From: a virus
IMG/VR virus record: IMGVR_UViG_3300005563_000004
Span: 3,332 to 67,331 of that record
DNA length: 64,000 nucleotides
Direction: 5' to 3' (one strand)
Part shown: positions 25,507-52,791 of the stretch, one piece after another
Position numbering within the stretch: the stretch's first letter is position 1
Layout: each line of letters starts with the position of its first letter
Program-made: the position numbers and the translations under genes
Notes under the pieces: model-generated
Seen by the model: the letters and a program-made list of their open reading frames with translations, nothing else
Database searches by the model: none
Told to the model about the DNA's origin: nothing

Positions 25507-26121
25507 ATGGCCCATCCATACCACGAGCACCGCGCAGAGCACGTCGCCAAGGCGAACAAGATCCTCCACCGCGCGGGCCACAAGGGCTTTGCGCACGGTG
25601 GCCACGTCGATGCCGACGAAGACGCGGGCATGGTCAAGTCCGGCGTGCGCCAGCACGAGAACGACTTGCACGGCGGCAAGCATAGCAAGCTGCACCTGAA
25701 GGACGGCGGGCACGTCGAGGGCGAGCGCGGCCACCATCACATGGCGCACCGTGCGCGCGGCGGGAAGACGCACGGCGGCAAGCACACGAAGGTCAACGTG
25801 ATCATCGCTCCGCAAGGTGGCGGTGGTGGTGGTGCACCTCCGATGGCAGCACGGCCACCGATGGCTGCCGCGCCACCGCCGCGGCCACCGATGCCGCCTC
25901 CGGGTGGCGCTCCGATGGGTGGGCCGCCTCCAATGCCTCCGCCGGGCATGACGCGGCCAGGCATGGGTATGCCGGGTGCGATGCCTCCCGGTGGCATGAT
26001 GCGTGCGCGCGGCGGCAAGGTGCACATGGAAGCAGGTTCCGGCAGCGGGCCGGGCCGGTTGGAGAAGATGCACGATTACGGCAAGGGCGGCTTCAAACCG
26101 AAGGAGCGCTGCAAGGCGTGA
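25507..26121 (+). CDS. His/Pro/Gly-rich disordered protein with xxGG repeats
   Basis: GAGGAG SD; FAHGG, LKDGG, RARGG twice, GSGSG.GRLEK. Confidence 0.8.
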   Translation: MAHPYHEHRAEHVAKANKILHRAGHKGFAHGGHVDADEDAGMVKSGVRQHENDLHGGKHSKLHLKDGGHVEGERGHHHMAHRARGGKTHGGKHTKVNVIIAPQGGGGGGAPPMAARPPMAAAPPPRPPMPPPGGAPMGGPPPMPPPGMTRPGMGMPGAMPPGGMMRARGGKVHMEAGSGSGPGRLEKMHDYGKGGFKPKERCKA

Positions 26122-26303
26122 ACCGTCTAATAGAGATCGACAAGTGGACTGCTGGTCGCGACAAGATCCAGCAAGAAATCGACCGCCGCATGATGGGTTT
26201 ACTTCATGTAAACACCATAGAACAGTTGGAGAGGCAAAAGGGTTACATTGAGGGATTGAAACGCGCTATCGACGCGGTCGATTCACCAAATGAGGACCAT
26301 TGA
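26118..26303 (+). CDS. small head-region protein
   Basis: GYIEGL..A; overlap-coupled on both sides. Confidence 0.6.
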   Translation: MNRLIEIDKWTAGRDKIQQEIDRRMMGLLHVNTIEQLERQKGYIEGLKRAIDAVDSPNEDH

Positions 26304-26749
26304 TGCCTGCGCCTGTTAGAGTTGTTCACGAAGTCGATCAGAAGGAACTGATCTGGGATCAGTGCGGCAGCTATCTGAAGGGTCTTCAGCCGCTGGCCGA
26401 TCGCGTGCTTGTTGTGATGTACGAGCGCACCAACCAGGGCGAGGGTAGGGAAGCGAAGACCGCTGGCGGCATTATCATGGTCAAGAGCCAGAGCCGCACT
26501 GGGGCCGCTGAGCAGGATAAGTATCAGGGCCGGCTGGGGCTGGTCATGGCGCTGGGGCCGCTGGCCTTCAAGACTGATGCGACCCACGACTGGGGGGGCG
26601 TCACGCCCAAGGTCAACGACTGGGTCATGTTCGACTCCATCTCGAATTTCTCGCCGTTCGATCTGCCGAATGACAGGCGGGCGCGGTTCATCTTGGATCG
26701 TGCCATCGAGGCGCTTGTTCCCGACGAGACGTTCGACGCCATTTGGTAA
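26303..26749 (+). CDS. phage GroES-like co-chaperonin
   Basis: LQPLADRVLV...KTAGGII...G.V.ALGPLAF...KV.DWV.F. Confidence 0.85.
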   Translation: MPAPVRVVHEVDQKELIWDQCGSYLKGLQPLADRVLVVMYERTNQGEGREAKTAGGIIMVKSQSRTGAAEQDKYQGRLGLVMALGPLAFKTDATHDWGGVTPKVNDWVMFDSISNFSPFDLPNDRRARFILDRAIEALVPDETFDAIW

Positions 26750-27015: not shown

Positions 27016-27906
27016 ATGTCAGAGACGACGGCGAGCCAAGTTGGCGAGCCAGCAGACGGCCAAGTTTCCGATGATGATGTCCGGCGGATGCTGGACGAGT
27101 ATCGGGACAAGAGTACCAGACTAGAGCAAGAACTAGCCGACGAGCGACGACAGCGACAGACCGTCGAGCGGGACCGCGATACCCATGCCGCCCGCGTCGT
27201 CAGTGAGACCGAGCAGCGCTACAACGCCGAACTGAACGCAGTCTCCACAGCATACACCTCCGCCAGCGAGGCGGTCGTTTCAGCCAAGGCGGCCTATCGG
27301 GCCGCGCTGGCAGACGGCGACCACGACAAGGCGGCCGATCTGCAGGAGGCTATCGCCAAGGCGGTGGGCCGGCGCGAGCAGGCCGAGGCTTACAAGGCGC
27401 AGCTGGAGAAGAACAAAGATCAGATCCTGCGGCCCCAGCAAACCCGGCAGGATGACGAATATGGCGGCCTGCAGCTGACATCTGAGGAGCGGTCGTGGGT
27501 TTCCTCGCGTCCGCAGTTCCGCACCGACGGTAGCTACCGCAACCGCGTGGTTGGCGCGTCGCAGATTGCCGCGGCAGAGGGTCATGGTCGCGGTTCCGAA
27601 GGCTACTTTCGCCGGATCGAGGAGATCATGGGCGAGGGGAAGCGTGCGGATCAGGAGCGTCGCGAGCCGGATCATGATGAACCAGCACCGCGGCGTCCGT
27701 CAGCCGATGTTGCGCCGACGCGGCGCGCGCAGCCTGGCGCGCAGCCGGCGGGCAGGGTGCGCGTGGAACTGAGCGCCGATGAGCGGGAGGTGGCCGACGC
27801 CATGTATGGCAATCCCACCCATGACGGCTATGTCGCGGATGACGCCGCGCGGTACGAAAAGTACTTCAAGCACAAGCAGGCCATGCGTGCCTCGGGGAGA
27901 CTGTAA
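27016..27906 (+). CDS. capsid scaffolding protein
   Basis: Charged coiled coil; C-terminal V.LS..E..VA...Y..K; position before the capsid genes. Confidence 0.7.
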   Translation: MSETTASQVGEPADGQVSDDDVRRMLDEYRDKSTRLEQELADERRQRQTVERDRDTHAARVVSETEQRYNAELNAVSTAYTSASEAVVSAKAAYRAALADGDHDKAADLQEAIAKAVGRREQAEAYKAQLEKNKDQILRPQQTRQDDEYGGLQLTSEERSWVSSRPQFRTDGSYRNRVVGASQIAAAEGHGRGSEGYFRRIEEIMGEGKRADQERREPDHDEPAPRRPSADVAPTRRAQPGAQPAGRVRVELSADEREVADAMYGNPTHDGYVADDAARYEKYFKHKQAMRASGRL

Positions 27907-29381: not shown

Positions 29382-29514
29382 CAGCCAAGCGCGCCATTCC
29401 GCGTCGGAATGTTGATGCGCGGCTGAGCCGAAGCAGGTTTGCGTGTCGTTCGCCTGCCAGCTGGGTGTTCCAGTCAATCGCAACCAATTCTCCCCGGTCC
29501 TTATGGACCGGGGA
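29382..29514 (+). ncRNA. structured 5' leader of the capsid operon
   Basis: Three consecutive stems, including the perfect TCCCCGGTCC-TTAT-GGACCGGGGA. Confidence 0.5.
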
Positions 29515-29533
29515 CGTATGGAGTGGACTGGAC

Positions 29534-30166
29534 GTGGCAGCGAACACATTCGCCCCCAGCGGTTTCCATCCGGTGTTCATGTTCGGCGGATCGCCGACCA
29601 ACTTCGGAATCTGGGACCGGCAGCTTACCTGGAATTACGCCTCCAACATCGCGTTCGGTGATCCGGTCAAGCAGGACACGAACGGGATGATCAACGTGGT
29701 GGCCAACGGTGGCACGACCATCGACGGCATCGCGTTGGGGCTTAATTACTTTGATCCGAACAACATCCTCGGCGGGCGCTATCACCCGGCGTGGCTGCAG
29801 CCGGCTCTGACCTCCAGCGTCGCGGTGTCGGTCAAGGTCATGGCCGATCCACGCATGGTGCTCTACTGCCAGGCGAAGGGCACGGCGGTCACAGCCACAG
29901 CGATCGGCAAGAACGTCGACATCTCGACTGGCACCAGCGCTGCGCCGGTTACCGGCTCCGGTCTGAGCACATGTGCTCTGGATGTTGCCAACGCGGCGAC
30001 CACCAGCACCTTGCCGTTCCGCATCGTCGGCATCGTGGGTGTGACGCCTGGCTTCAGCCCGGCTGCTCCCTGCATCAGCCCCTCATACGTCGGCACCAAC
30101 GACAATCAGTGGCTGGCTGTGATGATGAATACGCAAGACCTGACCACACGCAGCGGTCAGGCATAA
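29534..30166 (+). CDS. capsid decoration/auxiliary protein
   Basis: ANTFAP.GF.PV...I..GDPV...V..DP...T..LPFRIVG; directly upstream of the MCP. Confidence 0.75.
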   Translation: MAANTFAPSGFHPVFMFGGSPTNFGIWDRQLTWNYASNIAFGDPVKQDTNGMINVVANGGTTIDGIALGLNYFDPNNILGGRYHPAWLQPALTSSVAVSVKVMADPRMVLYCQAKGTAVTATAIGKNVDISTGTSAAPVTGSGLSTCALDVANAATTSTLPFRIVGIVGVTPGFSPAAPCISPSYVGTNDNQWLAVMMNTQDLTTRSGQA

Positions 30167-30178: not shown

Positions 30179-31087
30179 ATGCCTATTAACAGAGCTTCAG
30201 CCCGCGACCTTCTCCTCCCAGGTCTTGCGGACATCGAGGGCAAGTATCCTCAGCTGCCGACGCGGTACAAGGAATGGGCGTCGACCAGCACCTCCAAGAT
30301 GGCCATGGAGCGCATCGATGAGATGCGGTACACTGGCCTGGCCCAGCTCAAGGGCGAAGGCGCGGCGACCACATTCGACAACGCTTCCGGCCAGCGTTTC
30401 ACCTACGTCGCCAACATGATCAACGTGGGCCTTGGCTTCGCCATCACCCGCGAGATGCTGGACGACAACCTCTACAAAGAGCAGTTCGGACCATCCTCGA
30501 TGGGGCTGGCGGAGTCTTTCGCCCAGTTCAAAGAGGTCTACGTCCACACGCTGCTGAACAACGCCACCACCTACAACAGCGAGATCGTCGCTGACGGTGT
30601 GGCGCTGGCGTCAACGGCGCATCCTATCGACAACGGCACCTACGCCAACACCTTCTCCACGCAGCTCGACTTCAACGAGGCGGCGGTGGAGTCGGCGCTG
30701 AACACCATTCGCCTCTGGCCGGATCAGGCCGGACTGCTGGCCATGGTGCGCGCCCGTAAGGTGGTGGTGCCGGTGGCGCTGTCATGGGCAGCTGAGCGGC
30801 TATTCAAGACCGAACTGCGCACCAACACCAACAACAACGACGTGTCGGCGATCATCACCTCTGGCGCCATGCCGGAAGGCTACGTGGTCAGCGAATTTCT
30901 CACGTCGTCGTTCGCCTGGTTCGTCATGACGAATGTGCGCGGGCTTCGGGTGTTCGACCGCATCCCGTACGAGATGGACCTGCAGGTCGATCCGACCACG
31001 GGCAACCTGCTGGTTGTCGGGTACGAGCGCTACGGCATCACCTACAGCAATCCGCGCTCCGTATTCGTCAGCACGCCGACCTCTTAA
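30179..31087 (+). CDS. major capsid protein (HK97 fold, Mu gpT-like family)
   Basis: LLLPGL, K.EG....FD, LGFAITRE..DDNLY, DGVAL.ST.HP, LTS..AWF, ERY.....PR. Confidence 0.9.
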   Translation: MPINRASARDLLLPGLADIEGKYPQLPTRYKEWASTSTSKMAMERIDEMRYTGLAQLKGEGAATTFDNASGQRFTYVANMINVGLGFAITREMLDDNLYKEQFGPSSMGLAESFAQFKEVYVHTLLNNATTYNSEIVADGVALASTAHPIDNGTYANTFSTQLDFNEAAVESALNTIRLWPDQAGLLAMVRARKVVVPVALSWAAERLFKTELRTNTNNNDVSAIITSGAMPEGYVVSEFLTSSFAWFVMTNVRGLRVFDRIPYEMDLQVDPTTGNLLVVGYERYGITYSNPRSVFVSTPTS

Positions 31088-32299: not shown

Positions 32300-32686
32300 A
32301 TGGCATACAAGAAGCGCAGTGAGCGGAAGGGCCGCTCCTTCGGCGGCAGAGCCGAAAAGAACGAGCACCAGTACGACGCGCAGGGATCGCCGGAGGAAAA
32401 GGCGGAGCACGCCAAAAGCGAGGGCTTCAAGCGCGGCGGATCGCATCACCACCGCAAGCATGGTGGTAATGTCGAGGGCGAGCACGCGCATCATCACATG
32501 GGCCACCGCAAGCGCGGCGGCGGTGTGCATGAGGAGCATGAGCATCACGCCAAGGGCGGCAAGGTCGGGCGCATGAGCCACCACGCGGCGGCGCGCGGCG
32601 GCTCGCCGTTCAGTTCCGGGCGCGCGAAGTCCGGTCCCAGCAACGGTAAAGGATCGCCTGGAGAGCAAGCCCCACTGGAACCATGA
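32300..32686 (+). CDS. His/Lys-rich disordered protein with xxGG repeats
   Basis: AAGGAG SD; RSFGG, FKRGG, RKHGG, RKRGG, HAKGG, AARGG. Confidence 0.8.
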   Translation: MAYKKRSERKGRSFGGRAEKNEHQYDAQGSPEEKAEHAKSEGFKRGGSHHHRKHGGNVEGEHAHHHMGHRKRGGGVHEEHEHHAKGGKVGRMSHHAAARGGSPFSSGRAKSGPSNGKGSPGEQAPLEP

Positions 32687-32934
32687 GGGCCGCAGGGGGG
32701 CGACTCTCTGCGGCCGACACCGAAAACCGAGTCCAGCCGAAACTTCTGGCGCGCGGTGGCGGCATCCACATCAAGCCGTCGCACCGCGGGCTTCTGACCA
32801 AGGAGGTCGGCAAGAGCGGACTGAAGGTGGGCAACCTTCGCAAAGAGATTGCTCACGACAAGGCTGAAGGGAACACGGCCAAGGAGAAACGCGAGGTTTT
32901 TGCGTTGAACGCCAAGACCAAGTTCCACCACTAA
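32683..32934 (+). CDS. small basic protein with xxGG motifs
   Basis: RAAGG, LARGG, IHIKPSHRG.LT...R..FA.NA..F.H. Confidence 0.7.
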   Translation: MRAAGGRLSAADTENRVQPKLLARGGGIHIKPSHRGLLTKEVGKSGLKVGNLRKEIAHDKAEGNTAKEKREVFALNAKTKFHH

Positions 32935-34413: not shown

Positions 34414-35013
34414 ATGGGCATTCAGCAATCCAGTCGCTGTTACGCCGACATCCGCAAGCCGCAGCCGTGGGCGTTCTGCGACCGCTGCAACAATCGCGTG
34501 TTTCATCACGATCTGCGCTGGCAGTTCGACTATCGCGGGCCGAAGCTGGCGAACCTGTGCATTCTCGTGTGCGATCGCTGCTACGATCAGCCGTACGAAT
34601 TTAATCGGCCGATTGTCATCGGTCCCGACCCAGTCCCAGTGAAAGATCCGCGGCCTGGCTATCTGGCGCAGCAGGCGGGGCCGGCGCCGCCGCCGTTCTT
34701 TCCGTTCCAGATCCAGCCGGTGCCGCCGGGGCGGTTCGTCTTTCTCACGGATGACCTGGGCAACGTCATCACTGATGATCTTGGCCAGCCGATCGAGATT
34801 GAGGCCGGCACGGCGCTCGTGCCGCCGATCCCGCCGGTCACGTTCCAGTACCTGACAGACGACCTCGGCAACGTCATCACCGATGACCTCGGCCAACCGA
34901 TCGAGTTTGAGGTTGGCGGCGGTGGCCCAACGCCGATCCCACCAACGCCACCGTCAGGCAATCTGGTCTTCACGGGGCCTGGTTCATCTCAATACGTGCC
35001 GGTGGTCCTATGA
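34414..35013 (+). CDS. CDRC Zn-finger protein with duplicated LTDDLGNVITDDLGQPIE
   Basis: CDRC twice, DP.PV..PRP, and an internal repeat. Confidence 0.75.
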   Translation: MGIQQSSRCYADIRKPQPWAFCDRCNNRVFHHDLRWQFDYRGPKLANLCILVCDRCYDQPYEFNRPIVIGPDPVPVKDPRPGYLAQQAGPAPPPFFPFQIQPVPPGRFVFLTDDLGNVITDDLGQPIEIEAGTALVPPIPPVTFQYLTDDLGNVITDDLGQPIEFEVGGGGPTPIPPTPPSGNLVFTGPGSSQYVPVVL

Positions 35014-37802: not shown

Positions 37803-37822
37803 GGCAAGGAGAGTAACTCACA

Positions 37823-43799: not shown

Positions 43800-44284
43800 T
43801 GTCCGGCAGCAACATCAACCTCGGCCAGATTGTCGCGCAGCAGACGGAAGGCAACCGGCTCCTCGCCGCGCTGGAGCAGGCCCTGCGTGGCGCAACGGTC
43901 GCCGGCAATATTGCCTATTCCCAGCTGCCGGCCGAAGTGCAGCAGCTGCCGATCGCTTTCCCGTTCCAGGGCAAGCCGGGCAGTGGCGAACTGATGCACC
44001 TGGTCTTGCCGTTCGCGATTTCCCTCCCGGCCGGACTGACCGGCGCGGTGGTCTACGACGCGACGCAGGCGACCGCGAACGCCGTCTTCACCTTCAACCG
44101 CATATCGAGCGGCGTGCTGACGCAGCTCGGCACCGTCACGATCACGCCAGCGTCACACAGCAGCTGTGTGCTAGCTGGTGCTGGCGGAACGCTGATTGCG
44201 GGAGACGTGTTGCAACGTGTTGCGCCGACGCAGGACGCAACGCTCGCCGATGGCTGCATAACCCTATTGGCTATGAGGAACTGA
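43799..44284 (+). CDS. tail-associated protein
   Basis: TGATG coupling; C-terminal AGD.L...AP..DATLAD. Confidence 0.65.
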   Translation: MSGSNINLGQIVAQQTEGNRLLAALEQALRGATVAGNIAYSQLPAEVQQLPIAFPFQGKPGSGELMHLVLPFAISLPAGLTGAVVYDATQATANAVFTFNRISSGVLTQLGTVTITPASHSSCVLAGAGGTLIAGDVLQRVAPTQDATLADGCITLLAMRN

Positions 44285-44287
44285 CGA

Positions 44288-44743
44288 ATGGCCGCCGGAG
44301 CATGGACTGTCTACTCGAATGCGGTCCTTGGGATATCCAAGGGCAGCTTCAACCTGTCGACCGACAACTATAATATCATCCTCGTTACAAACTCCTACAC
44401 GCCAGCGCCGAACACGGACACGACCTACTCGAACGTCAGCGCCAATGAGCTGACGACGGCCGGTGGCTACACGGTGGGCGGCATAACGCTGGCCAGCGAG
44501 ACCGATACGCTAACGACGGCCACGGTGACGTTCACCTCCGCCAATCCGGCGTGGAGTTCGTTCACCGCTGGTCCGTTCAGGTATGGCGTCATCGTGCGGC
44601 GCGCTGGTGGCGGTCTCGTCTCTGGCGATTTGCTGCTGTGTTACTCGGACCTTGGCGGCGGCTCATCAATCACCGGAGCGGGCGGCACGCTGACTGTCAC
44701 CATGAACGCCTCCGGCATCTTCACCATCACACACTCTCCGTAG
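44288..44743 (+). CDS. structural protein (fibre anchor-like)
   Basis: L.....YTP......NE....GYT.GG..L...L..Y.D.G...GIF. Confidence 0.7.
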   Translation: MAAGAWTVYSNAVLGISKGSFNLSTDNYNIILVTNSYTPAPNTDTTYSNVSANELTTAGGYTVGGITLASETDTLTTATVTFTSANPAWSSFTAGPFRYGVIVRRAGGGLVSGDLLLCYSDLGGGSSITGAGGTLTVTMNASGIFTITHSP

Positions 44744-44753
44744 GAGCGAGAAC

Positions 44754-45326
44754 ATGGCTTCCGGTTATCTTGCACCGCTTGCAATCGCCACTGCAGACGG
44801 CCCTACGCTGACTGCCGCCTCCGCGGCAACCTGCCTTCCCGTCACGGCGAAGCTGACGTTTCCGCCAAACTCGATCCAGGTGGGATCGGTGTTCCGCATT
44901 ACTGCGCATGGGCGCATCTCGTGTGTGGTGACCACGCCTGGAACGGCTCGCTTCGACATCCGGCTCGGCAGCACTGTGGTCTTCGACTCCGGCCCAATGA
45001 ACCTGAACACGACGGCGCAAACGACTGTGCCCTGGCGCCTCGTGATCAACTTGACTTGTCGCGCAAGTGGCTCATCAGGGAACTTCATTGGCTTCTCGGA
45101 CTTTACGACGGTCGCTGTCGTTGGTTCTCCATCAGTCACCACGGGGGGCAATGGCGAGTTCATTTCGTCGGTGTCTGGCGGTCCTGGCAGCGCGCCGGCA
45201 GTGGGTGGCAACGTGGACCTGACTGCGAGCAACACGTTCGATATGTTCTTCACGCAGACGGTCGCGACCGGCAGCATGACGGTTCATGCTTTCCTGCTGG
45301 AGTCAGCCGGCCTCGCTCTGATGTAA
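44754..45326 (+). CDS. structural beta protein
   Basis: AGGAG SD; PPN...VGS.FRI.A.G. Confidence 0.65.
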   Translation: MASGYLAPLAIATADGPTLTAASAATCLPVTAKLTFPPNSIQVGSVFRITAHGRISCVVTTPGTARFDIRLGSTVVFDSGPMNLNTTAQTTVPWRLVINLTCRASGSSGNFIGFSDFTTVAVVGSPSVTTGGNGEFISSVSGGPGSAPAVGGNVDLTASNTFDMFFTQTVATGSMTVHAFLLESAGLALM

Positions 45327-45354
45327 GCGGCGTCCGGCCAGAGGGCCGCGCTCT

Positions 45355-47190
45355 GTGACCACGATCTACATTGTCGGCGCTGGCGCCGGGACTTTTACGC
45401 CGCCCTCAACGGCCACCGCCACTGTTGACTGTTTCGGCGCCGGTCCCGCAGGCGGCGTAGGGGGGACTGGTGGCGGCAGCGCGGGATGGGCGCGGAAGAA
45501 TTCACTTAGCCTAACTCTAGGTGTCGGGGTCAGTTTTAACCTTGGCGCTCCGGGCGTAACGGCATCACAGGCTGGCGGCAATACTTGGTTCTCTAGCACT
45601 GCAACTGTCCTTGCTGCTGGCGGTCTCTCGGGAACGACTCAGGTCGGTGACTCGACCTTTGCTGGCGCAGGTCAACAAACGAGCGCGCCGGTAGGGAACG
45701 CTGGCGGCGCTGGGGCGGCTGGCCCAAACGGCGCAGGTAAGCTGGGTGGTGCCGCCCCCAACACGGGAGGTGGGGGCGGTGGGGGTAATGGCGGCGGCGC
45801 TGTTGGGCAGGATTCTCCTGTCAGCGGCAACGGCGGCAATGGCGGCAATGGCTTTGCGGGCACAGGCGGCACGGGCGGCGCGGGTGCTGGTGCGCCTGGT
45901 GGAAATGGTTCGGGCGGGGCTGGCGCTGGTTCCAGTGGCGGAGCTGGCGGCAACGGCGGTGACGACTTCGACAATGGAGGCGGTGGTGGTGGTGGCACTC
46001 CACCTGGGGCAAACGGAGGCACCACGGGTGGTATTGGTGGTACTCCGGGTGGTGGAGGCGGATCTTCGGCCGGCGGGCAGTCCGCTGTTCGGGGCGGCTA
46101 TGGTCTCATCAAGATCACCTATCCTGGGTCTGATCCAGACCGGATAATCTTCGGCGGCGGGATCACTCAGGCGCAAATCCTGACGAACATTCCGGCCTCG
46201 TGGAACGGCACCTATACTGTGGGCGTGATGAACGGCGGCTTCACCGTTCTCACGCAAGGTGCGCCGCTGGTACTGCCGTCAGTCTATGGCGACAATCCTA
46301 AGCTGATCAGGCGCCCAGGTCGGATCGGTGGCAAGCGCATCACACCGCGGCCAATCCGCGATTATTCTACGCCAGCCAGTAACATAACGGTCGCACCGGA
46401 CGTTGGCTCGATTGTCTTTACCGGCCTGGCTCCTTCAGCCGATGAAAGTCTGCTTCCCGGCGTTGGCTCGATCCTGTTCACAGGACAGGCGCCATCAGCA
46501 AACGAAGCTGTACAGCCTGGCGCTGGATCGATCGTCTTCACTGGCCTGGCTCCTTCGGTCGGTGAAAGTTTAGCTCCCGGCGCCGGCTCGATCCTTTTCA
46601 CCGGCAATGCTCCGTCAGCCGACGAAAGCCTGTTGCCCGGTGCTGGCTCGATCTTGTTTTCAGGGCAGGCGCCATCCGCAGATGAAGCGCTGTTGCCCGG
46701 CGCCGGATCGGTGCTGTTCACCGGGCTGGCGCCGTCAGTAAACGAAGCGCTTCTGCCTGGTGTCGGCGCGATCGTCTTTACCGGCAACGCTCCGTCGCTT
46801 TTCGCTGAAGCGGTAGCGTCGAGACTTCCGCGTCAGCTGGGTCGTGGCCCGCGACCGCTCATTCCGCATCCGCTGCGCGACTACTCCGCCACCGTATCGA
46901 GCCTATTCCCAGATGCTGGCTCGATCATATTCACTGGCTTGGCGCCAAGCCTCGATGAGATGCTATCCCCAGGTGTCGGATCAGTCGTCTTCACGGGGCA
47001 GGCTCCATCTGCGGATGAAAGCCTGCTTCCTGGCGTCGGGTCGATCACCTTCACTGGCCTCGCGCCGACGCCGCTTTACAACGTGGCTGTCGCGCCCGGT
47101 GTTGGCTCGGTGTCGTTCACCGGCTTTGTTCCGACAGTGACAGCACCGCCGACGCGCGCCATCGTTGCACAACCAGCGTTCTTGTGGTGA
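45355..47190 (+). CDS. Gly-rich plus 20-aa-repeat fibre protein
   Basis: Gly-rich N-terminal half; 11 copies of P(G/D)(V/A)G(S/A)hxF(T/S)GxxP. Confidence 0.75.
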   Translation: MTTIYIVGAGAGTFTPPSTATATVDCFGAGPAGGVGGTGGGSAGWARKNSLSLTLGVGVSFNLGAPGVTASQAGGNTWFSSTATVLAAGGLSGTTQVGDSTFAGAGQQTSAPVGNAGGAGAAGPNGAGKLGGAAPNTGGGGGGGNGGGAVGQDSPVSGNGGNGGNGFAGTGGTGGAGAGAPGGNGSGGAGAGSSGGAGGNGGDDFDNGGGGGGGTPPGANGGTTGGIGGTPGGGGGSSAGGQSAVRGGYGLIKITYPGSDPDRIIFGGGITQAQILTNIPASWNGTYTVGVMNGGFTVLTQGAPLVLPSVYGDNPKLIRRPGRIGGKRITPRPIRDYSTPASNITVAPDVGSIVFTGLAPSADESLLPGVGSILFTGQAPSANEAVQPGAGSIVFTGLAPSVGESLAPGAGSILFTGNAPSADESLLPGAGSILFSGQAPSADEALLPGAGSVLFTGLAPSVNEALLPGVGAIVFTGNAPSLFAEAVASRLPRQLGRGPRPLIPHPLRDYSATVSSLFPDAGSIIFTGLAPSLDEMLSPGVGSVVFTGQAPSADESLLPGVGSITFTGLAPTPLYNVAVAPGVGSVSFTGFVPTVTAPPTRAIVAQPAFLW

Positions 47191-47217
47191 AGCGGCGCAT
47201 TTTGCTACAGGAACGCA

Positions 47218-47553
47218 ATGCCCGTCCTGCCTCGCTTTACATCGGCTCGTGGCCTCGTCCGTCCCAATATTGATCAGTATTTAACCGTTCATTTGCCGGG
47301 TGAGATCATGCAGGCAGTGGTGGTCCAGGTCGTGGATCGGGACCGCGTGATTGTCGAACTTGACTCCACGCCAATGTCGAGGAGCCACACCTATCGCAAG
47401 GGCGACCGGCCCGGCGCGCGGCGGCGGCGGGAGCACGGCATAGATATCTGGGAAGTGGTGGACGATCGGTACTTCATCTCCAACATGAGTCCGAACGAGT
47501 TCCGGCCGGCGGAGGAGAAGCCGGCGCCGAAGAAGCGAAGGGCGAAACACTGA
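47218..47553 (+). CDS. hypothetical protein
   Basis: TGATG-coupled to the next gene. Confidence 0.6.
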   Translation: MPVLPRFTSARGLVRPNIDQYLTVHLPGEIMQAVVVQVVDRDRVIVELDSTPMSRSHTYRKGDRPGARRRREHGIDIWEVVDDRYFISNMSPNEFRPAEEKPAPKKRRAKH

Positions 47554-48761
47554 TGCCGTGGTCTGGGCAGTCCTTTCAAAAGCACAACCACGCACTGCAC
47601 GGCGCGAAAGCTGAGCACGCAGCACATATTGCTAACGCGGTGTTAAAATCTGGTGTCGATGAAGGCGAAAGCATCGCCATCGCGAACAAGTGGGCGCAGC
47701 ATCACGCGGACGGCGGCGCCATCAAGCACAGCAAAGATTCGCCCGAGGTACAGTACGGCCACGGTATGCCGAGTGCCCACTGCGGGATCTGCTCGCACTT
47801 CCGCGCGCCGCATAGCTGCGAGGTGGTGGCGGGCGAAGTCAGTTCGCAGGGCTGGTGCAAGCTGTTCAAGCATCGCGAGAGCCGCGGCATGGGTGGCCCG
47901 ATCGGCTACGATGGTGGTGGGATGATCGATCCGACTGCCGGCTCCGTCGCGCTCAATCCGCCGGCACTGGGCGGCATAACGCCATCGGCATCCACGGCCT
48001 CGCCGATGATAGCGCAGACGCTGCAACGTTACGCGCAGATGCCGACCGAGAAGCTGCAGGAAATGGCCATGGTGATGGGCAATTCTCCGCAGGGGAAGAT
48101 GGTCAAGCGGGCGCTGATGCAGAAGCATATGGTGCCACAAGTGCAGCAGGCGGTTCCGCAGCAGCAAGCACCGGCCATGGGCCAGGCGGCTGGTGGCCCG
48201 GTTGCACACCGCGACATGGGTGGTGGGATGCTCGGCATGGGTTTGTCGCAGGCTGAGCCGTGGTGGACGCGATCGGAAGCGCGCGGTGCTGACGCGGGAC
48301 CAATGACCGGCTACCTGCATGGCGCTACCGCCGGCCGTGCCGATGCGCTCAAGGGCACGGCGCTGTCGGATAGCTATATCCTGCCGGCGGAGGAGATTGC
48401 CGGGCTGGGCGAGGGCAACAGCCTCATGGGCGCTCGTGTGATCAACGCCATGCTGGGAAGTGGTCCGCACGGCATTGCGCAGCCCCATGGTCGCGCCGGT
48501 CACGGGCCACCGCGTCCGCCGGCTCCGCCACGCGAGTATCAAGCCAAGGGCGGCGGAGTGCAGCAGGGCGAGCAGCCAACAACCAAAGTCGCACTGAGCC
48601 ACGGCGAATACTCAATGACACCAGAGCAAGTGATGCAGTTCACAGGAAGGAATGATTTGAAAAGCGCACACCGCGTCATGGACCTGTTCACCATGGAGCT
48701 GCGGAAGCGGCACATCAAGGAATTGAAAGGACTCGAACCACCGGTTGGCAGCAAACAATGA
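47553..48761 (+). CDS. modular ejection-region protein: YdaT-like N-terminus, HiPIP-like module, xxGG motifs
   Basis: MPW...IANA.L..G..EG..IAIA; CGICSHF....CEVV.G.V...GWC..F; GRAD...SYILPA; VALS.GEY...PEQV. Confidence 0.75.
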   Translation: MPWSGQSFQKHNHALHGAKAEHAAHIANAVLKSGVDEGESIAIANKWAQHHADGGAIKHSKDSPEVQYGHGMPSAHCGICSHFRAPHSCEVVAGEVSSQGWCKLFKHRESRGMGGPIGYDGGGMIDPTAGSVALNPPALGGITPSASTASPMIAQTLQRYAQMPTEKLQEMAMVMGNSPQGKMVKRALMQKHMVPQVQQAVPQQQAPAMGQAAGGPVAHRDMGGGMLGMGLSQAEPWWTRSEARGADAGPMTGYLHGATAGRADALKGTALSDSYILPAEEIAGLGEGNSLMGARVINAMLGSGPHGIAQPHGRAGHGPPRPPAPPREYQAKGGGVQQGEQPTTKVALSHGEYSMTPEQVMQFTGRNDLKSAHRVMDLFTMELRKRHIKELKGLEPPVGSKQ

Positions 48762-49312
48762 ACAACCCGCACGGCGTACGTCGCGCCACCGACGCGGACA
48801 TTCCCGGTCTCCTGACCCTCGTACCGCAGATCCTCGCCGAGAGCGAAGTGCTGGCACTTTCCGAACCGAAGATTCGGACGCTGATCGAAAAGTGCTGCCA
48901 GCGCCAAGCCGGCGCCATCGCCGGCATCATCGACGGCGCGGCCGGCGTGATCGACGCCAGCATTGGCATGACTTTCGCTCAGTCCGAAGTGTCGGACGAG
49001 CCGTATATCTCGGTGGTGTGGTTCGGCCTGGCGCCGCACGCGCGCACGTTGCCGCAGGACATTGCCGCGGTGCCCGACCATCCGCGGGCGCATTACAGCC
49101 GGCGCCTGGCAAACTTCGCCAAGTGGACGCATGAGACGGCGGAAGCCGCCGCCGGCCATCGGATCATCATGCGGTGGGACGTGCTGACGCTCGAAAGCCT
49201 CGGGCCGAAGCTGAACATGTACGGCCGCAACTTCCCCCAGGTCGGCGCCTATTTTGCGCTCGGCGCAGCCGGCACGTTCAAGCCGCGCGGGCAAAGCGTT
49301 GAAGCTGCCTGA
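48758..49312 (+). CDS. GNAT-like protein (degenerate)
   Basis: VRRATDADI..L; paralogous in layout to the next gene. Confidence 0.55.
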   Translation: MNNPHGVRRATDADIPGLLTLVPQILAESEVLALSEPKIRTLIEKCCQRQAGAIAGIIDGAAGVIDASIGMTFAQSEVSDEPYISVVWFGLAPHARTLPQDIAAVPDHPRAHYSRRLANFAKWTHETAEAAAGHRIIMRWDVLTLESLGPKLNMYGRNFPQVGAYFALGAAGTFKPRGQSVEAA

Positions 49313-49802
49313 CAGGGTCCGGCTCGCCCAACCGTCCGACCTGGACCGGCTCTGCGATTTTTGTTGGGTCGCTGCGGCCGATAATGGCCTTTTCCCGCTG
49401 GCGCCGGCCAAGGTCATCGATCTCCTGAAGCGCGCATGCTGGCGGTCGTCTGATCCGCCGGCTGTCATTGGCTTGATCGATGGGCCGGGCCGGATCGAGG
49501 CGGCGGTTTACCTGGATGCCATGACCCACTGGTATTCGAACTACTGGTTATACGTTGATCGCTTTCTCTATGTGCATCCTGCCCATCGCCGCAGCCGGCA
49601 CGCCTTCCGGTTGTTGCAGTTCTGTCGTTTCTGGTATGAAGCCAACGGGGTGCCTGTTGTCCTCACGATCGAGACCCTGAAAGAGCGGGAGGGCAAGGAG
49701 CGCTTGTATAGCCGTTACGCGCGTCGCGTCGGCGCCAGCTTCGTCATTGGCGAACTGTGTGTGGAGAACGCGACGGATGGGCAAGGGATCAAGCGGCAGT
49801 AA
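49299..49802 (+). CDS. GNAT-like acetyltransferase
   Basis: VRLAQPSD; WYS; FLYVHPAHRRSRHA..LL.F; K.RLY.R....GA.F. Confidence 0.7.
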   Translation: MKLPDRVRLAQPSDLDRLCDFCWVAAADNGLFPLAPAKVIDLLKRACWRSSDPPAVIGLIDGPGRIEAAVYLDAMTHWYSNYWLYVDRFLYVHPAHRRSRHAFRLLQFCRFWYEANGVPVVLTIETLKEREGKERLYSRYARRVGASFVIGELCVENATDGQGIKRQ

Positions 49803-52791
49803 CACGACCGTCCAGAACAATGCGCCTCCGCAGCAGTTCATGGACGCCTATACCCATGCGGTTCAGAACGCTCAGAACCTTGCCGCGCAGCCGTTTCAGC
49901 AATACACCGGCAACCTTCAGGCGGGACTATCGCCCGATCAGCTAGGCGCCATCAGCAACATCGAGAGCGCACAAGGCGTCGCGTCGCCGTACATTAACAG
50001 CGCCGCTCAGTACATAAACAACGCGACGGCACCGCTGCAGCCTACGCTGCAGCCGTATCAGAATGCGCAGGACTGGTGGGCACAGCAGGAGGCCGGCATT
50101 GCGCAAAACAATCCGAACCTGCTCAACCAATTCTTCACGCCTGCCAATCAGAACCTGAACAAAGAACAGGGCATCGCGCAGCAGGCGCTGGGAACGGTAT
50201 CGCCATTCCAGCAGCTCGGTTCGTCGCAGATCAACCAGTACCTCAACCCGTATCTGAACCAGGTTGTCGGTGCGACGCAGGCACAGTTCAACAACCAGAA
50301 CGCGCAGCAGGCGAACCAACTGGCCGGCAACGCCGTATCGGCGGGAGCTTATGGCGGCGATCGTGAGGCGCTGGCGCAGTCATCGCTGGCCAATCAGCAG
50401 CAGCTGGCGCAGGCGCCGGTTATCGCCGGGCTGGAAAGCCAAGGTTACGGCCAGGCAGTGCAGACCGCGCAGCAGCAGCAGCAAGCGCAGCTCTCGAACC
50501 AGCAGGCGCAGCTTCAGGGCCAAGGATTGGCAAGCAACCTGTATCAGAATGCTGCCAATGCCGCGATGCAGCAGGCCGGGCTTGGCTTGCAGGGATCGCA
50601 GATGAACGCCGGCATCTACAACAACATCGCCAACATGCTTGGCCAGCAGGGGCAGATGAGCCTCGGCGCCAATGAGGCGAATGCATGGCTCAACAGCCAG
50701 GCTGGCTACGGCATGGCGAACCTCGGCAACGAAGCGCTCAACTCGACACTGACTGGCGCGAATGCGCTGCTCGGCGTGGGTGGCCTCGAGCAACAGCAGG
50801 CGCAGCAATCGCTGAACATTCCGTACGAGCAGTTCATCGCTCAGCAATCGTGGCCGTTTCAGACGGCTGGCTGGGAATCGAACATTGCGGAGGGGCTGGG
50901 TGCCAACGCGGGCGGCACCGGCACAACGACTGTGCCAGGACCAAGCGTCGGCTCACAGGTTGCCGGCGGGGCGCTGGCTACGGCGGGACTGCTGGGCCAG
51001 ACAGGTGCCTTTGGCAACAGCGGGTGGCTGACCGGCGCAGGGGGCGGCGCTGGCGTAGTCGACACAGGAGCTTTCGATGCCGGCGCTGGCGTAGTCGATG
51101 CGGGAGCGTTCGCTGCTCGTGGCGGCTCCATTCCACATCGTGCCTTTGGCGGTGGCATGGGTCAGCCGATTGCGCTGCCGCAAGGCATGCCCAACGTGCC
51201 CGATGTCAGCATGAGCATCGTCCCTCAAGGATCAGTGTCGCACGGTGGGATGAACGTGCTGAAGAATTACGGTTCGACTTCTACCACGACCGGCGGCGGC
51301 GGCGGTGGCCAAGAGGCTGCGCAAGCCATTAGTGACGTTATCAAGATCGTCGGCACTATTGCGGCGTTTGCCAAACGTGGCGGTCACATCCCGCGCCGCG
51401 CCGCAGGCGGTTCGGCTCCGGTTTCTGTCACGCTCAAGCCAGGCTCCTATGCCGGATCGCCCCAAGTGCCAGTGCTGTCGAACGGTGGTGGTGGCATGGG
51501 GGCGCCGACCGCCGGAACGCCGCAAGGACTGAGCGACTATCTATCGAGCACCGCCGCGTCGGCGCGCCCGCCGCCAGCACCCGCCCCTGCAGCATCCGCT
51601 CCACCTTCAGCCTCTCCGGCGCCAGCTGCGCAGCCGCCGGGACCAGCAGTCGCAACCGAGGGCATGATGTCACCCTATGGCTTTGCGCTTCCTACAGGCA
51701 TGCCGCTCGCGACTGGTCCGTACGGCGACTATCTGAATGCCTTCAACGCAGGCAATTGGCCGGGCATCGGTGCGCCTGCCAGCTTTGGCGGCCAGCAGGC
51801 CAGCGGTGGCCGTGTCGGATTGGACGATGGCGGTGTGCCTGGCATGGGCGACGACGGGCCCCCTCCTCCGATGGGCGGCATGGGTGCACCAGTTGCTCCG
51901 CCATCTGATGGTCGCGACTGGTCGCGTGCGTTGCTGTACGCTGGTCTCGGCATCATGGGCGGCAACTCGCCGAACGCTGGCGTCAACATTGGCCGCGGTG
52001 CGCTACAGGGATTGCAGGCGGCAAGCAAAGAACAGCGCGAAAACGCCTACGAACGGCATCAGGCAGAGACCGAACGGCAGGCGGCAATCCGGCTGGCGAA
52101 CGAGGCTGATTACCACAAGCAGCAACTGCAGCAGCAGGACAAGCATCTGTCAGCTGAGCAGGAGCACTGGAAGGCACAGGAAGGCCAGTTCCAGCAGATG
52201 ATGCCTATCCACCAGGGGCAGCTGGATATCGGTCGTGGCAATCTTGCGCTGCATCAAGACGAGTTTGGCGAGAAGACCGCTAAAGATGCACTGGCAGTGC
52301 AGCAGGGGCGCTGGGTGCCGGGCTACGGAAGCGGCGAGAACGGCGACCACATCCCCGGCATGTACTACATGCCGAAGACTGGCGGCGAGCCGATATTCCA
52401 TCCTGGCGTCAACTCAGCGACGACCCAGCGGCTTGACCAGTCGACGGCGAATCAGAACGCGCTGCTCGAGATGAAGAAGCAGGCGCTTGCTCAGACCAAG
52501 GATCTAAAGACTCAGGGGATGATCCAGGGAGCCAGCGGCCAAGTACTGCGGAGCGCTGGCAATATCATCAACGCAAATCCAGGGATCAAATGGGACAAAG
52601 CCATCGAGATGGCGACAAAGTCCCAGAGCAATGTGCAGTCCCAAGTGCAACTGCCACCATCGTCTCAGCCGGCGTCTCAGCCATCTGCCGCCGCACCGCC
52701 GCCGATCCCCAAGCCGGGCGACATTCTCCAAGGCTACGTCTTCAAGGGAGGCGACCCAGGCAACCAGGCGAACTGGGCGCCGCAACAGTAG
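49777..52791 (+). CDS. DNA ejection (internal virion) protein
   Basis: MGKGSS..T.; Y.NPY..QV; AGAYGG.R; Gln-rich; C-terminal G.VFKGGDP....NW. Confidence 0.8.
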   Translation: MGKGSSGSNTTVQNNAPPQQFMDAYTHAVQNAQNLAAQPFQQYTGNLQAGLSPDQLGAISNIESAQGVASPYINSAAQYINNATAPLQPTLQPYQNAQDWWAQQEAGIAQNNPNLLNQFFTPANQNLNKEQGIAQQALGTVSPFQQLGSSQINQYLNPYLNQVVGATQAQFNNQNAQQANQLAGNAVSAGAYGGDREALAQSSLANQQQLAQAPVIAGLESQGYGQAVQTAQQQQQAQLSNQQAQLQGQGLASNLYQNAANAAMQQAGLGLQGSQMNAGIYNNIANMLGQQGQMSLGANEANAWLNSQAGYGMANLGNEALNSTLTGANALLGVGGLEQQQAQQSLNIPYEQFIAQQSWPFQTAGWESNIAEGLGANAGGTGTTTVPGPSVGSQVAGGALATAGLLGQTGAFGNSGWLTGAGGGAGVVDTGAFDAGAGVVDAGAFAARGGSIPHRAFGGGMGQPIALPQGMPNVPDVSMSIVPQGSVSHGGMNVLKNYGSTSTTTGGGGGGQEAAQAISDVIKIVGTIAAFAKRGGHIPRRAAGGSAPVSVTLKPGSYAGSPQVPVLSNGGGGMGAPTAGTPQGLSDYLSSTAASARPPPAPAPAASAPPSASPAPAAQPPGPAVATEGMMSPYGFALPTGMPLATGPYGDYLNAFNAGNWPGIGAPASFGGQQASGGRVGLDDGGVPGMGDDGPPPPMGGMGAPVAPPSDGRDWSRALLYAGLGIMGGNSPNAGVNIGRGALQGLQAASKEQRENAYERHQAETERQAAIRLANEADYHKQQLQQQDKHLSAEQEHWKAQEGQFQQMMPIHQGQLDIGRGNLALHQDEFGEKTAKDALAVQQGRWVPGYGSGENGDHIPGMYYMPKTGGEPIFHPGVNSATTQRLDQSTANQNALLEMKKQALAQTKDLKTQGMIQGASGQVLRSAGNIINANPGIKWDKAIEMATKSQSNVQSQVQLPPSSQPASQPSAAAPPPIPKPGDILQGYVFKGGDPGNQANWAPQQ

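Follow-up and report, generated by a model that had tools for sequence, protein, structure and literature searches.

Introduction

Phage T4 directs internal proteins into its prohead by a short peptide, the capsid targeting sequence; this signal is a single N-terminal leader that the prohead protease removes at L/I-x-E, and T4 gp21 cleaves proteins in the prohead core. In adenovirus, Gly-Gly sites occur in core proteins packed inside the capsid, and the adenovirus protease cuts (M/I/L)XGG-X sites, the adenain anchor lying four residues before the cut. Encapsulins load their cargo by short peptides of Gly and hydrophobic residues, which are single and C-terminal and attach to the inner surface of a shell with the HK97 fold.

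Small proteins that dock by short loops have been described in T7, where gp6.7 (88 aa) and gp7.3 (99 aa) are mostly unresolved and dock the loops 34-50 and 84-98 on gp15 and gp12, the surfaces used being core, portal or nozzle proteins; gp6.7 bridges the symmetry mismatch between 12-fold and 8-fold parts, and K84 and K85 of gp7.3, adjoining its docked loop, touch the DNA end (Zheng et al., 2024, PMC11784390). In crAss001 the cargo protein C1 (gp45) belongs to the virion and binds the portal; its residues 425-552 are described, in the text rather than in coordinates, as modelled on the wing of the portal (Bayfield et al., 2023, PMC10172136). Polyvalent phage proteins are virion-delivered chains of unrelated, shuffled modules, for which processing by an embedded MPTase has been proposed; the words "linker" and "glycine" are absent from the main text of that study (Iyer et al., 2017, PMC5512222).

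Results

A seven-residue Gly-Gly motif in five proteins

The window analysed here, a stretch of 64,000 nucleotides, belongs to a podovirus that is unrelated to the crAss-like phages and has a T7-like internal-protein block. A preliminary description had listed 25 Gly-Gly heptads in five proteins, and all 25 were found in the translations of the genes concerned: five in 25507-26121, six in 32300-32686, two in 32683-32934, and six each in the ejection-block genes 47553-48761 and 49777-52791, the last heptad ending at base 51840. Their general form starts with a long residue, basic or aromatic, and continues with Ala, Lys or Asp, a free position, Gly-Gly, a second free position and Val or Ile. 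We call this portable heptad a "junction tag"; two copies frequently stand in succession, with a repeat length of about 9 residues. The tags are restricted to proteins of the head and ejection gene blocks, and no published description was found in the literature searched.

The consensus first proposed, [RHFYQL][AKD]xGGx[VIM], which was derived from the same sites as those counted, gives 14 matches over the 1821 aa of the five proteins, where 0.26 are expected. Over 2000 shuffles per set, the mean was 0.26 with whole-protein and 0.24 with 40-residue block shuffling, with a maximum of 3 and none reaching 14, and the other 41 proteins of the window (13,801 aa) gave one match against 0.89 expected. 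For the simpler pattern GGx[VIM] the corresponding figures were 18 observed against 3.8-4.6 expected in the five proteins, and 19 against 18.1 in the other 41. When a mixture model was fitted to the 3393 GG sites of 984 ORFs (the window and 62 related loci), 472 sites were called as tags; rescoring with the same model gave 471 tags, where block shuffles averaged 71.7, and 83 ORFs with at least three tags, where they averaged 0.9. The pairing at about 10 residues noted earlier also held: among 290 distances from tag to tag, 76 measure 8-10 residues, where 0.7 are expected.

Five positions flanking Gly-Gly are conserved and +2 is hydrophobic, the information content of the mixture-model tags being 1.48 bits at -3, 1.39 at -2, 0.97 at -1 and 1.02 at +2. 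Basic residues are frequent in the related clade (R 34% at -3, K+R 29% at -2, R+K 35% at -1), and Asp makes up 11-16% at -2 and -1. The motif is retained across 47% to 69% G+C, Lys taking the place of Arg where G+C is low, which indicates selection on the protein and not on the DNA. The claim that the five proteins are otherwise unrelated is very nearly correct: filtered BLASTP among them gave E > 1.7 throughout, but without filtering the tag-rich part of the 25507 protein aligned with the 32300 protein at E = 1e-13, so that these two look like related tag arrays.

Architecture of the tagged proteins

The post-portal protein (204 aa; 25507..26121, + strand), whose architecture recurs after the portal gene in relatives, combines a His-rich array of tags with a KVNVIIA strand, a spacer rich in Pro and Gly and further tags at the C-terminus; its heptads (FAHGGHV, LKDGGHV, RARGGKT, RARGGKV, YGKGG) lie at 25588-25608, 25696-25716, 25750-25770, 26002-26022 and 26077-26097. 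A small, nearly tag-only protein of 128 aa (32300..32686, +), delineated from its translation and a family alignment (A2), carries six tags (RSFGGRA, FKRGGS, RKHGGNV, RKRGGGV, HAKGGKV, AARGGS) at 32333-32353, 32426-32446, 32453-32473, 32507-32527, 32546-32566 and 32588-32608, and the profile of its family recovers 617 representative clusters at E <= 1e-3. Its stop is overlapped (ATGA) by the start of the gene for an 83-aa protein (32683..32934, +), in which the tags RAAGGRL and LARGGGI (32686-32706, residues 2-8, and 32746-32766) precede a helical module (HIKPSHRG...). AF2 places helices at residues 37-79, and both tag stretches have block-mean pLDDT values of 43-58. The small tag proteins are rich in K, R and H, and also contain ~15% D+E. 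In seven of 25 members of the 83-aa family the module stands at or near the N-terminus, exactly at the start in six, and the Gly-Gly is lost (MANKSGIHIKP); such a loss is what a pure joint or a cleavage site would predict, against docking.

The tagged proteins of the ejection block are encoded upstream of a T7 gp16-like transglycosylase protein. In the putative internal protein of 402 aa (47553..48761, +), delineated from translation, conservation and AF2, tags join an N-terminal helical module, a HiPIP-like insert that carries its own flanking tags, a helical module and a conserved C-terminal domain. Its six tags (HADGGAI, RGMGGPI, YDGGGMI, QAAGGPV, RDMGGGM, QAKGGGV; 47703-47723, 47883-47903, 47907-47927, 48183-48203, 48210-48230, 48540-48560) all fall in segments with pLDDT < 50, the folded parts being 1-52, 146-195 and 250-400. 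The Gly-Gly positions are kept in 29 homologues of 35-76% identity, where D120, G122, G123, G224, G225, G333 and G334 are invariant or nearly so; two tandem pairs are included, RGMGGPI/YDGGGMI (47883..47927, +; 8 residues apart; D120, G122 and G123 invariant in 29 sequences) and QAAGGPV/RDMGGGM (48183..48230, +; 9 residues apart; G224 and G225 invariant).

The 1004-aa ejection protein (49777..52791, +) has a weak match to the PHROG "DNA ejection protein" and lies downstream of two GNAT-like genes. Homology is limited to residues 1-420 and 710-980, and between the conserved N- and C-terminal domains lies a variable centre with three tandem pairs: AARGGSI/RAFGGGM (51112..51159, +), directly after the N-terminal domain, AKRGGHI/RAAGGSA (51370..51417, +) and QASGGRV/LDDGGVP (51796..51840, +). 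All 16 family members examined, including this protein itself, have tags in the centre, and 11 of them show, at the N-domain boundary, a first pair with a spacing of 8-10 residues. As in T7, an acetyltransferase-like gene is followed by those for the large ejection protein and the transglycosylase protein, a likeness in internal-protein gene order to the arrangement treated by Hardies et al. (2016, PMC4819975). Judging from gene position, the five tag proteins are probably packed inside the head or present in the virion.

Gene positions and module exchange in relatives

Gene positions were compared in 15 phages, all with the same portal family. In most of them tag genes recur at three places, namely behind the portal gene, behind the capsid gene and within the ejection block; 12 of the 15 have an ORF with at least two tags between the portal and capsid genes, and 13 a small ORF with at least two tags after the capsid gene. 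Tags bracket swappable modules, and inserted modules bring their own flanking tags. SLT modules of L004 and L016 are flanked in this way, L054 reuses the helical module of the 402-aa protein, and the tagged post-portal proteins of the relative MW202675 resemble polyvalent proteins in carrying ART-PolyVal, InPase, Peptidase_M15 and a GNAT domain. A tag forms the exact C-terminus of proteins in three relatives (RFMGGAI, RFVGGAV, KKKGGKV). No tag-rich protein occurs in four cultured phages whose capsid, GroES-like and portal module is related, so this head type does not need tags; Pag-Yong1 has one possible tag pair.

Comparison with T7 and crAss001

T7 offers a precedent of small internal proteins that dock short Gly-Gly loops (PMC11784390), as loop 34-50 begins FGGSS and loop 84-98 holds SSGGGIN. 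However, every T7 Gly-Gly site scored below zero log-odds with the tag model, no sequence relation was found, and T7 has neither tandem pairs nor tags on large core proteins.

Heptads of the same kind are seen in crAss001 gp45, which carries FAEGGGL, KAFGGSL, NAFGGWL, NTQGGDF, FAYGGDT and KAKGGKV, and whose Gly-Gly at 427, 434 and 447, two of them with the tag pattern, fall inside the segment 425-552. Its modules 281-336 and 373-427 are homologous to modules in small tagged proteins of the phage's clade; the module of the 83-aa protein occurs in gp45 residues 373-427 and in the protein at the same, cargo, gene position of the crAss-like cr108_1, bracketed there by YAEGGGI...HDDGGWL. The portal-bound domain of gp45 was not found in our phage, whose portal, capsid protein and 402-aa protein have no detectable sequence similarity to their crAss001 counterparts; its tags are more basic, whereas crAss-like versions are aromatic and acidic (YAEGGGI, HDDGGWL, NAFGGWL); and PMC10172136 does not mention the motif. 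Since tagged modules are common to phages whose portals and capsid proteins lack detectable sequence similarity, a lineage-specific receptor pocket is not obvious, which counts against docking.

Search for a protease

No peptidase family was recognised in the complete genome of 67,331 bases, six-frame searches included, the sole peptidase-type match being the S74 chaperone domain of the tail fibre. Searches of 16 genomes, the phage and its 15 relatives, gave no MPTase-PolyVal match, a difference from the polyvalent proteins. The tags are like the T4 targeting sequence in being short peptides on proteins putatively of the head interior; unlike the T4 leader they are internal, repeated and sometimes C-terminal, and a prohead protease was not found in the genome. 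Nor, in contrast to adenovirus, was a clan CE protease, in a search that was weak, its C5 control being silent.

Discussion

The preliminary description had offered a choice between a short linear motif that loads cargo and a processing site, with the phage peptidase as a partner for co-folding. A short linear motif at conserved positions, in low-confidence linkers of head and ejection-block proteins, agrees with our results; the peptidase was not found. It is extremely improbable that the pattern plays no part in the protein and arises only from low-complexity sequence rich in Gly and G+C, or from linkers that serve recombination of the DNA. The five proteins are 12-20% Gly in a genome of ~62% G+C, and modules are clearly shuffled at tags, yet the composition-keeping shuffles (0.24 against 14 matches, 71.7 against 471 tags) contradict Gly-rich composition alone, the doubt raised at the outset; a 611-aa protein at 45355-47190 with 23% Gly and 44 GG sites has no tag, and retention at 47-51% G+C with Lys for Arg places the conservation in amino acids, not DNA. 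Very unlikely, too, are nucleic-acid-binding elements of the RGG-box or AT-hook kind that would tie internal proteins to packed DNA or condense it: the often basic flanks, the small proteins rich in K, R and H and the contact of gp7.3 K84/K85 with the DNA end beside a docked loop (PMC11784390) would fit, but acidic variants are invariant at some positions (RDxGG, D120), Asp is regular at -2 and -1, +2 is hydrophobic, the crAss-like tags are aromatic and acidic, and the small proteins hold D+E as well.

A small probability attaches to tags that have no specific partner and serve as structured hinges or module caps, the small modules forming beads on a string, which would allow the cargo to be packed densely and to pass the portal and tail channel one module at a time. 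This accords with low-confidence linkers between small modules, with Gly-Gly lost in the 83-aa family when nothing is joined upstream, and with tags common to phages without detectable portal or capsid protein similarity; plain linkers, however, would show neither five conserved positions around the Gly-Gly nor tandem copies at so narrowly set a distance (8-10 residues), and tag-only proteins and tags at the very ends of proteins join nothing. Cleavage after Gly-Gly by an unrecognised phage or host protease, freeing modules from polyprotein-like cargo and chopping tag-only proteins into small internal peptides, keeps a real but minor chance. Tags do stand at module joints and bracket inserted modules, Gly-Gly is lost in seven of 25 relatives of the 83-aa protein, and the tag-only family with its 617 clusters would fit a precursor of small internal peptides; polyvalent proteins, which the tagged proteins of relatives resemble (GNAT, M15 and ART-PolyVal, InPase), are argued to be processed into units (PMC5512222). 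The evidence nevertheless leans towards binding, given that neither a protease family in the complete genome nor an MPTase in any of 16 genomes was detected, that +2 is strongly conserved, that gp45 tags lie within a segment reported as modelled (PMC10172136), and that some tags stand at the exact C-terminus, where a cut would release just two residues. Tags at residues 2-8 of the 83-aa protein, tandem pairs that would yield 9-residue fragments, and a hydrophobic/basic anchor five residues ahead of the would-be cut (four in adenain) speak against cleavage as well.

We therefore suggest, with a probability of roughly 0.45, that the tags are uncut docking handles that fasten putative head cargo. 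From the structure predictions, they probably occupy flexible linkers where putatively head-packed, ejected proteins end or where their parts are joined. We infer that they bind some partner, and as to its identity the candidate surfaces would be the portal, core proteins, the scaffold or the inner capsid surface. The tags would then stay uncut and act as short docking loops, holding these proteins at a site that recurs within the internal core or shell, and the small tag-only proteins may serve as multivalent adaptors, like gp6.7 and gp7.3 of T7.

A conserved, paired Gly-Gly heptad in five putative head and ejection proteins

The preliminary description had listed 25 heptads around Gly-Gly in five proteins, named here by window start base or length (25507, 204 aa; 32300, 128 aa; 32683, 83 aa; 47553, 402 aa; 49777, 1004 aa), and all 25 were found in the translations. 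Its consensus, [RHFYQL][AKD]xGGx[VIM] (hereafter the tag, with positions −3 to −1 before and +1 to +3 after Gly-Gly), is matched 14 times in these 1821 residues against 0.26 expected from shuffles, or 0.24 if residues are shuffled within 40-residue blocks, and none of 2000 shuffles of either kind gave more than three matches; the other 41 window proteins (13,801 aa) hold one match, with 0.89 expected. Given that the consensus was derived from these same sites, the bare pattern GGx[VIM] was tested too, resulting in 18 matches against 3.8–4.6 expected in the five proteins and 19 against 18.1 in the remainder. Gly-rich composition can be ruled out as the cause, since a 611-aa protein with 23% Gly (ORF 45355–47190) has 44 Gly-Gly sites and none that scores as a tag. 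This protein, which is without a family match, contains about 5.7 tandem 60-base units (20 residues, PGxGSIxFTGxAPSxxExL) at 46396–46785, and its N-terminal half upstream of them is poly-Gly-rich.

That the five proteins are otherwise unrelated was borne out in filtered BLASTP (all E > 1.7), but not in unfiltered comparison, where 25507 and 32300 align at E = 1e-13, probably as related tag arrays. For the 402-aa protein 222 relatives were found at E ≤ 1e-3. In an alignment of the window protein with 28 of these (29 sequences, 35–76% identity), D120/G122/G123, G224/G225 and G333/G334 are invariant or nearly so, and the linkers around these Gly-Gly pairs vary in both length and sequence.

To describe the tag across its relatives, 62 viral loci with 402-aa relatives were fetched and a two-component mixture model was fitted to every isolated GG or GGG site, 3393 in total, from 984 distinct ORFs; 472 sites were called tags, a generous count because the model was seeded with the earlier pattern and trained on the scored data. 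In bits of information, the model scores 1.48 for −3 (R, F, Y, L), 1.39 for −2 (A, K, D) and 0.97 for −1, followed by 0.52 for +1, 1.02 for +2 (V, I, A, L) and 0.53 for +3 (P, G). The heptad thus opens with a long residue, hydrophobic or basic, followed by one of A/K/D type, and closes with a hydrophobic one. On rescoring, 471 tags compare with a mean of 71.7 over 20 block shuffles (highest value 93), and 83 ORFs have at least three tags against 0.9 expected; 802 of the 984 ORFs are without any. The pairing of tags about 10 residues apart, proposed earlier, is equally clear: 76 spacings of 8–10 residues were counted against 0.7 expected, indicating that tags can recur in tandem about every nine residues, and a second peak lies at 18. 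At E ≤ 1e-3, a profile of the tag-only small proteins retrieved 617 representative clusters from 1.84 billion representatives, 83 of them at E ≤ 1e-10; among the best 150 clusters, 139 have at least three tags, with a median length of 112 residues.

Genomic context and position of tagged genes

The source record, of which the window covers bases 3332–67331, is complete (67,331 bases, about 62% G+C) with direct terminal repeats, and its gene content, assigned with PHROGs, Pfam and NCBIfam, suggests a short-tailed phage whose internal-protein block is T7-like. The large terminase (19296–21041) and portal (23064–25352) precede a GroES-like protein (26300–26749), a charged scaffold-like protein of 296 aa (27016–27906) and a 302-aa capsid protein (30179–31087; weak Mu gpT match, 4346 homologues at E ≤ 1e-10); tail fibres (35010 to 43799), two GNAT-like genes (48758–49802), the 1004-aa protein (49777–52791; weak “DNA ejection protein” match) and an 1803-aa protein with an SLT transglycosylase at its N-terminus (52792–58203) follow. 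As T7 internal virion protein A is described as matching an acetyltransferase in the text of Hardies et al. (2016; PMC4819975), the order of acetyltransferase-like genes, large protein and transglycosylase protein corresponds to that of T7 gp13–16. From gene position alone, we infer a virion location for the five motif proteins.

Two divergently placed Xre-type HTH genes (5357–5773, minus strand; 6224–6778, plus strand) and a serine recombinase (Resolvase, E = 1e-41; locus L067, 404–1102, record bases beyond the window) suggest a temperate or switch-controlled lifestyle, and two relatives are classified as proviruses. A stretch F-M/V-x-GGSPTN is common to the 233-aa protein encoded immediately upstream of the capsid gene (29465–30166) and a 684-aa virion structural protein (41745–43799), with insignificant overall similarity (E = 0.16).

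Fifteen near-genome-sized records holding a 402-aa relative were used to compare gene positions. All 15 encode a portal of the same family (26–41% identity); the portal as a single query retrieved no related viral loci, so the portals were located by searching the loci’s own records, and the 16 kb downstream of each was fetched. In 12 of the 15, the interval from portal to capsid gene contains an ORF with at least two tags (11 if a 110-aa ORF of L084 is left out), the exceptions being L074, L082 and L086, and in 13 a small ORF with at least two tags lies downstream of the capsid gene (exceptions L077 and L082). The relatives’ ORFs were called as longest frames, and the post-portal miss in L074 may be false, as the call resembles a wrong frame. 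Across these records G+C content spans 47–69%, with Lys standing for Arg at low G+C and the motif retained. Together with the 14 matches against one in the window, the comparison argues for a tag confined to gene positions of presumed virion-internal proteins and to small basic proteins encoded close to the capsid gene. The portal of one relative (L084, 16–2655, reverse-complemented) is itself tagged, with AKTGGVI and RDKGGLA among roughly its 40 final residues.

No tag-rich protein is present in four cultured phages whose head module is related (Caulobacter RW, Pelagibacter HTVC023P, Roseobacter CRP-901 and Alcaligenes QDWS535), and Planktothrix Pag-Yong1 has one possible tag pair; the tags therefore represent an accessory layer which this head type does not require. 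GroES is annotated in all five at the position it holds here, between the portal and scaffold-like genes, indicating a head module common to cultured phages of very different hosts. In tblastn of a phage collection that included the tagless relatives, the C-terminal domain of the 402-aa protein was found in MW202675 only, which offers a lead that this domain accompanies the tags in this clade, although the contrast is confounded by phylogeny and by genome choice. [quoted passage not shown]

Tags at module joints and protein ends

In the AlphaFold2 model of the 402-aa protein, built from its family alignment, residues 1–52, 146–195 and 250–400 form folded modules and all six tags fall in segments of pLDDT < 50. 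The model of the 83-aa protein likewise has a helical module (37–79) and both tags in low-confidence stretches. The tags are thus predicted to sit in linkers that are flexible, between modules and at the ends of proteins. Inserted modules of HiPIP-like, SLT and helical type were found with a tag on either side. The HiPIP-like insert, with four cysteines, a possible 4Fe-4S module in a presumed internal virion protein, occupies residues ~58–106 of the 402-aa protein (47724–47870), between HADGGAI and RGMGGPI, and is present in just three of the 29 aligned sequences; it matches the NCBIfam iron oxidase Iro at E = 2.6e-11 but with 43.7 bits where the cut-off is 100, and Pfam HIPIP at 16.8 bits (cut-off 22).

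The 1004-aa family is conserved at its ends only (residues 1–420 and 710–980), and the variable centre is tagged in all 16 members examined, the window protein among them. In 11 of the 16 the first tags are a tandem pair that follows the N-terminal domain directly, an SLT domain lies between tags in two members, and the helical module of the 402-aa protein lies between tags in one. The N-terminal module of the 402-aa protein (residues 1–52, 47553–47708; MPW...HNH...HAA.IANA) is helical and is replaced by other N-termini in some homologues; it bears a weak resemblance to ChaB (VIA Z 4.5, rank 17). In a wider VIA-align comparison of the 402-aa model, the top Z, 5.3, came from the N-terminal helices alone and the C-terminal domain was barely covered; Foldseek against the PDB gave nothing at E ≤ 0.001. 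PDB sequence searches with the 402-aa family alignment, the portal, both small proteins and three head-module proteins yielded chance-level matches only; the small window proteins have no Pfam or PHROG match, and an ESM Atlas search with the 83-aa protein found viral clusters only, none of them named. The genes of the tag-only 128-aa protein and the 83-aa tag-plus-module protein overlap by ATGA (32683–32686). In several homologues (e.g., P0248, P0263) tag array and module are fused as one protein, in reverse order in two, so that the gene pair looks like a split form.

Modules in common with crAss-like phages

In tblastn the 83-aa protein matches the crAss-like genomes cr108_1 and cr85_1. The cr108_1 match lies within a 609-aa protein after a 2031-aa virion structural protein, and the module is bracketed by YAEGGGI and HDDGGWL. 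Like the window proteins, the crAss001 cargo protein C1 (gp45) carries heptads fitting the tag pattern, six in number, and its residues 281–336 and 373–427 match small tagged proteins of this clade (best E = 2e-6). Modules are therefore common to crAss-like cargo proteins and the tagged proteins described here. BLASTP found no relation between the window and crAss001 portals, and hhalign detected no relation between the 402-aa family and gp45 or between the capsid protein alignment and crAss001 gp32. The tag and some modules are thus common to phages whose core structural proteins have diverged past recognition at the level of sequence. Going by the wording of Bayfield et al. (2023; PMC10172136) rather than by coordinates, gp45 residues 425–552 are modelled on the portal wing. 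Gly-Gly pairs at 427, 434 and 447 fall within this segment and FAYGGDT lies just beyond it, at 559–565. In the accessible text of the crAss001 papers no band size or termini were found for gp45.

Comparison with other Gly-Gly motifs and polyvalent proteins

The tag was compared with several known motif classes. The T4-type capsid targeting sequence is a single N-terminal leader removed by the phage prohead protease. Here just 9 of 182 tagged ORFs have their first tag no more than 12 residues from the N-terminus, and neither S78 nor another prohead protease was found (Pfam scans, six-frame S78 search). Double-glycine leaders for C39 export, which are N-terminal and end in GG, do not fit either, as the tags are internal and repeated and C39 was absent in six frames (control positive in 7 of 14 genomes). 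RTX nonapeptide repeats consist of GGxGxDxUx units in long tandem runs; the tag model is without G at unit position 4 or D at 6, tags occur in pairs and not in runs, and none of the five proteins matches HemolysinCabind. RGG/RG boxes are clusters of Arg-Gly-Gly in disordered regions, otherwise unconstrained, and here Arg at −1 accounts for just 27% and Asp for 16%, with a conserved hydrophobic residue at +2. In encapsulins, cargo-loading peptides bind the HK97-fold shell protein on its luminal side.

In polyvalent proteins several unrelated effector-type domains are joined in one virion-delivered polypeptide, as is the case in the relative MW202675. After its portal gene lie four large tagged proteins with 3, 2, 2 and 8 tags (locus L093, 316–8978; MW202675 bases 40315–48977), two of which contain GNAT, Peptidase_M15 and ART-PolyVal, and InPase, respectively, listed as hallmarks of polyvalent proteins in the text of Iyer et al. 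(2017; PMC5512222), and polyvalent cargo seems to concentrate in this region. In the window the sub-threshold HiPIP-like insert is the sole candidate found for such a domain. Self-processing of polyvalent proteins by an MPTase has been proposed (Iyer et al., 2017); unlike in that proposal, no embedded MPTase (MPTase-PolyVal, PF18818) was found in the 16 genomes considered here, namely the window record and its 15 relatives. The words “linker” and “glycine” do not appear in the main text of that article. In genomes without MPTase, one class of polyvalent proteins may have the tags as joints that have so far escaped notice.

Possible docking loops or cleavage sites

Four observations count against cutting at the tags. 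No peptidase family was found by Pfam scans of 76 ORFs covering the whole record (with a few antisense ORFs left out), by PHROGs or by NCBIfam, the sole peptidase-named match being a tail-fibre S74 chaperone, which cleaves itself; in six frames, S78, MPTase-PolyVal, C48 and C39 gave no match. Gly-Gly processing of the adenain/Ulp1 type would call for a clan CE cysteine protease that the virus encodes or packages; the search for Peptidase_C5 was empty too but weak, since its control matched nowhere, and a divergent clan CE enzyme could escape it. Tags occur at the extreme C-terminus of two post-portal proteins (RFMGGAI, RFVGGAV) and one small protein (KKKGGKV), the 83-aa protein begins MRAAGGRL, and the +2 residue is conserved about as well as the residues preceding Gly-Gly. 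In addition, the gp45 Gly-Gly pairs at 427, 434 and 447 fall in the segment described as modelled on the portal wing. The GroES-like, scaffold-like and 233-aa proteins were considered as hidden proteases, without support from Pfam, PHROGs, NCBIfam or the PDB. One observation points in the opposite direction: in the 83-aa family the Gly-Gly before the module is missing in 7 of 25 members (MANKSGIHIKP), six of which begin exactly there; two of the seven have tags at the C-terminal side instead. The module thus does not need the tag, which is dropped where there is no upstream partner; a loading handle accounts for this pattern no better than a joint or a cleavage site would.

The best functional precedent found for docking comes from T7, where, according to the text of Zheng et al. 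(2024; PMC11784390), short loops alone are resolved for gp6.7 and gp7.3: residues 2–15 of gp6.7 on the portal barrel and 34–50 on the gp15 cylinder, and residues 84–98 of gp7.3 on two adjacent nozzle subunits, with gp6.7 described as an adapter across a 12-fold/8-fold mismatch. The gp6.7 loop 34–50 and the gp7.3 loop 84–98 contain Gly-Gly, as the tags do, but every T7 Gly-Gly site scores below 0 with the tag model, so that T7 provides an analogy and not a member of the family. Following this precedent, we suggest that the tags could act as uncut docking loops and the tag-only proteins as multivalent adaptors, a reading to which we give a probability of roughly 0.45. Cleavage at the tags by a novel phage or host protease, which the tag-loss variants would suit and the terminal tags and empty peptidase searches would not, seems unlikely. 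Hinges without a binding partner would agree with the predicted flexible joints, to be set beside the conservation on both sides of Gly-Gly, and appear somewhat less likely again. Binding of nucleic acid by the tags, whose small carriers are basic and which admit Asp at −1, is improbable, and an artefact of composition or of the DNA itself, considered against the shuffles and the 611-aa protein, is close to negligible. Extending the docking reading, the tag might be a portable cargo code across phage orders, in which one or two copies fasten any small module into the core to be taken along at ejection and tag-only proteins serve as multivalent glue; this wider proposal is less likely than not.

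Significance

No published description of the motif was found, and as far as literature searches reach it is new in print. The window adds its occurrence outside the crAss-like phages, the tandem nine-residue form, conserved positions in 15 relatives and a direct module homology to gp45, as well as, on the question of cutting, tags at protein ends, no recognisable protease and natural tag-loss variants. Cargo proteins of crAss-like gut phages and of an unrelated environmental podovirus group have the tag at their joints, the small-protein family alone comprising 617 representative clusters. If the tags were cut after all, they would represent a new maturation protease specificity in phages apparently without a protease.

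How injected proteins are chosen and held is known for few model phages, and a short, conserved and transferable tag would provide a testable loading rule for many uncultured ones. A loading tag would help in annotating many “hypothetical” virion proteins and account for the swapping of cargo modules, and might make it possible to load laboratory phage particles with proteins of choice. Should the portable code hold true, it would amount to a general, transferable rule for head loading, common to crAss-like phages and unrelated podoviruses.
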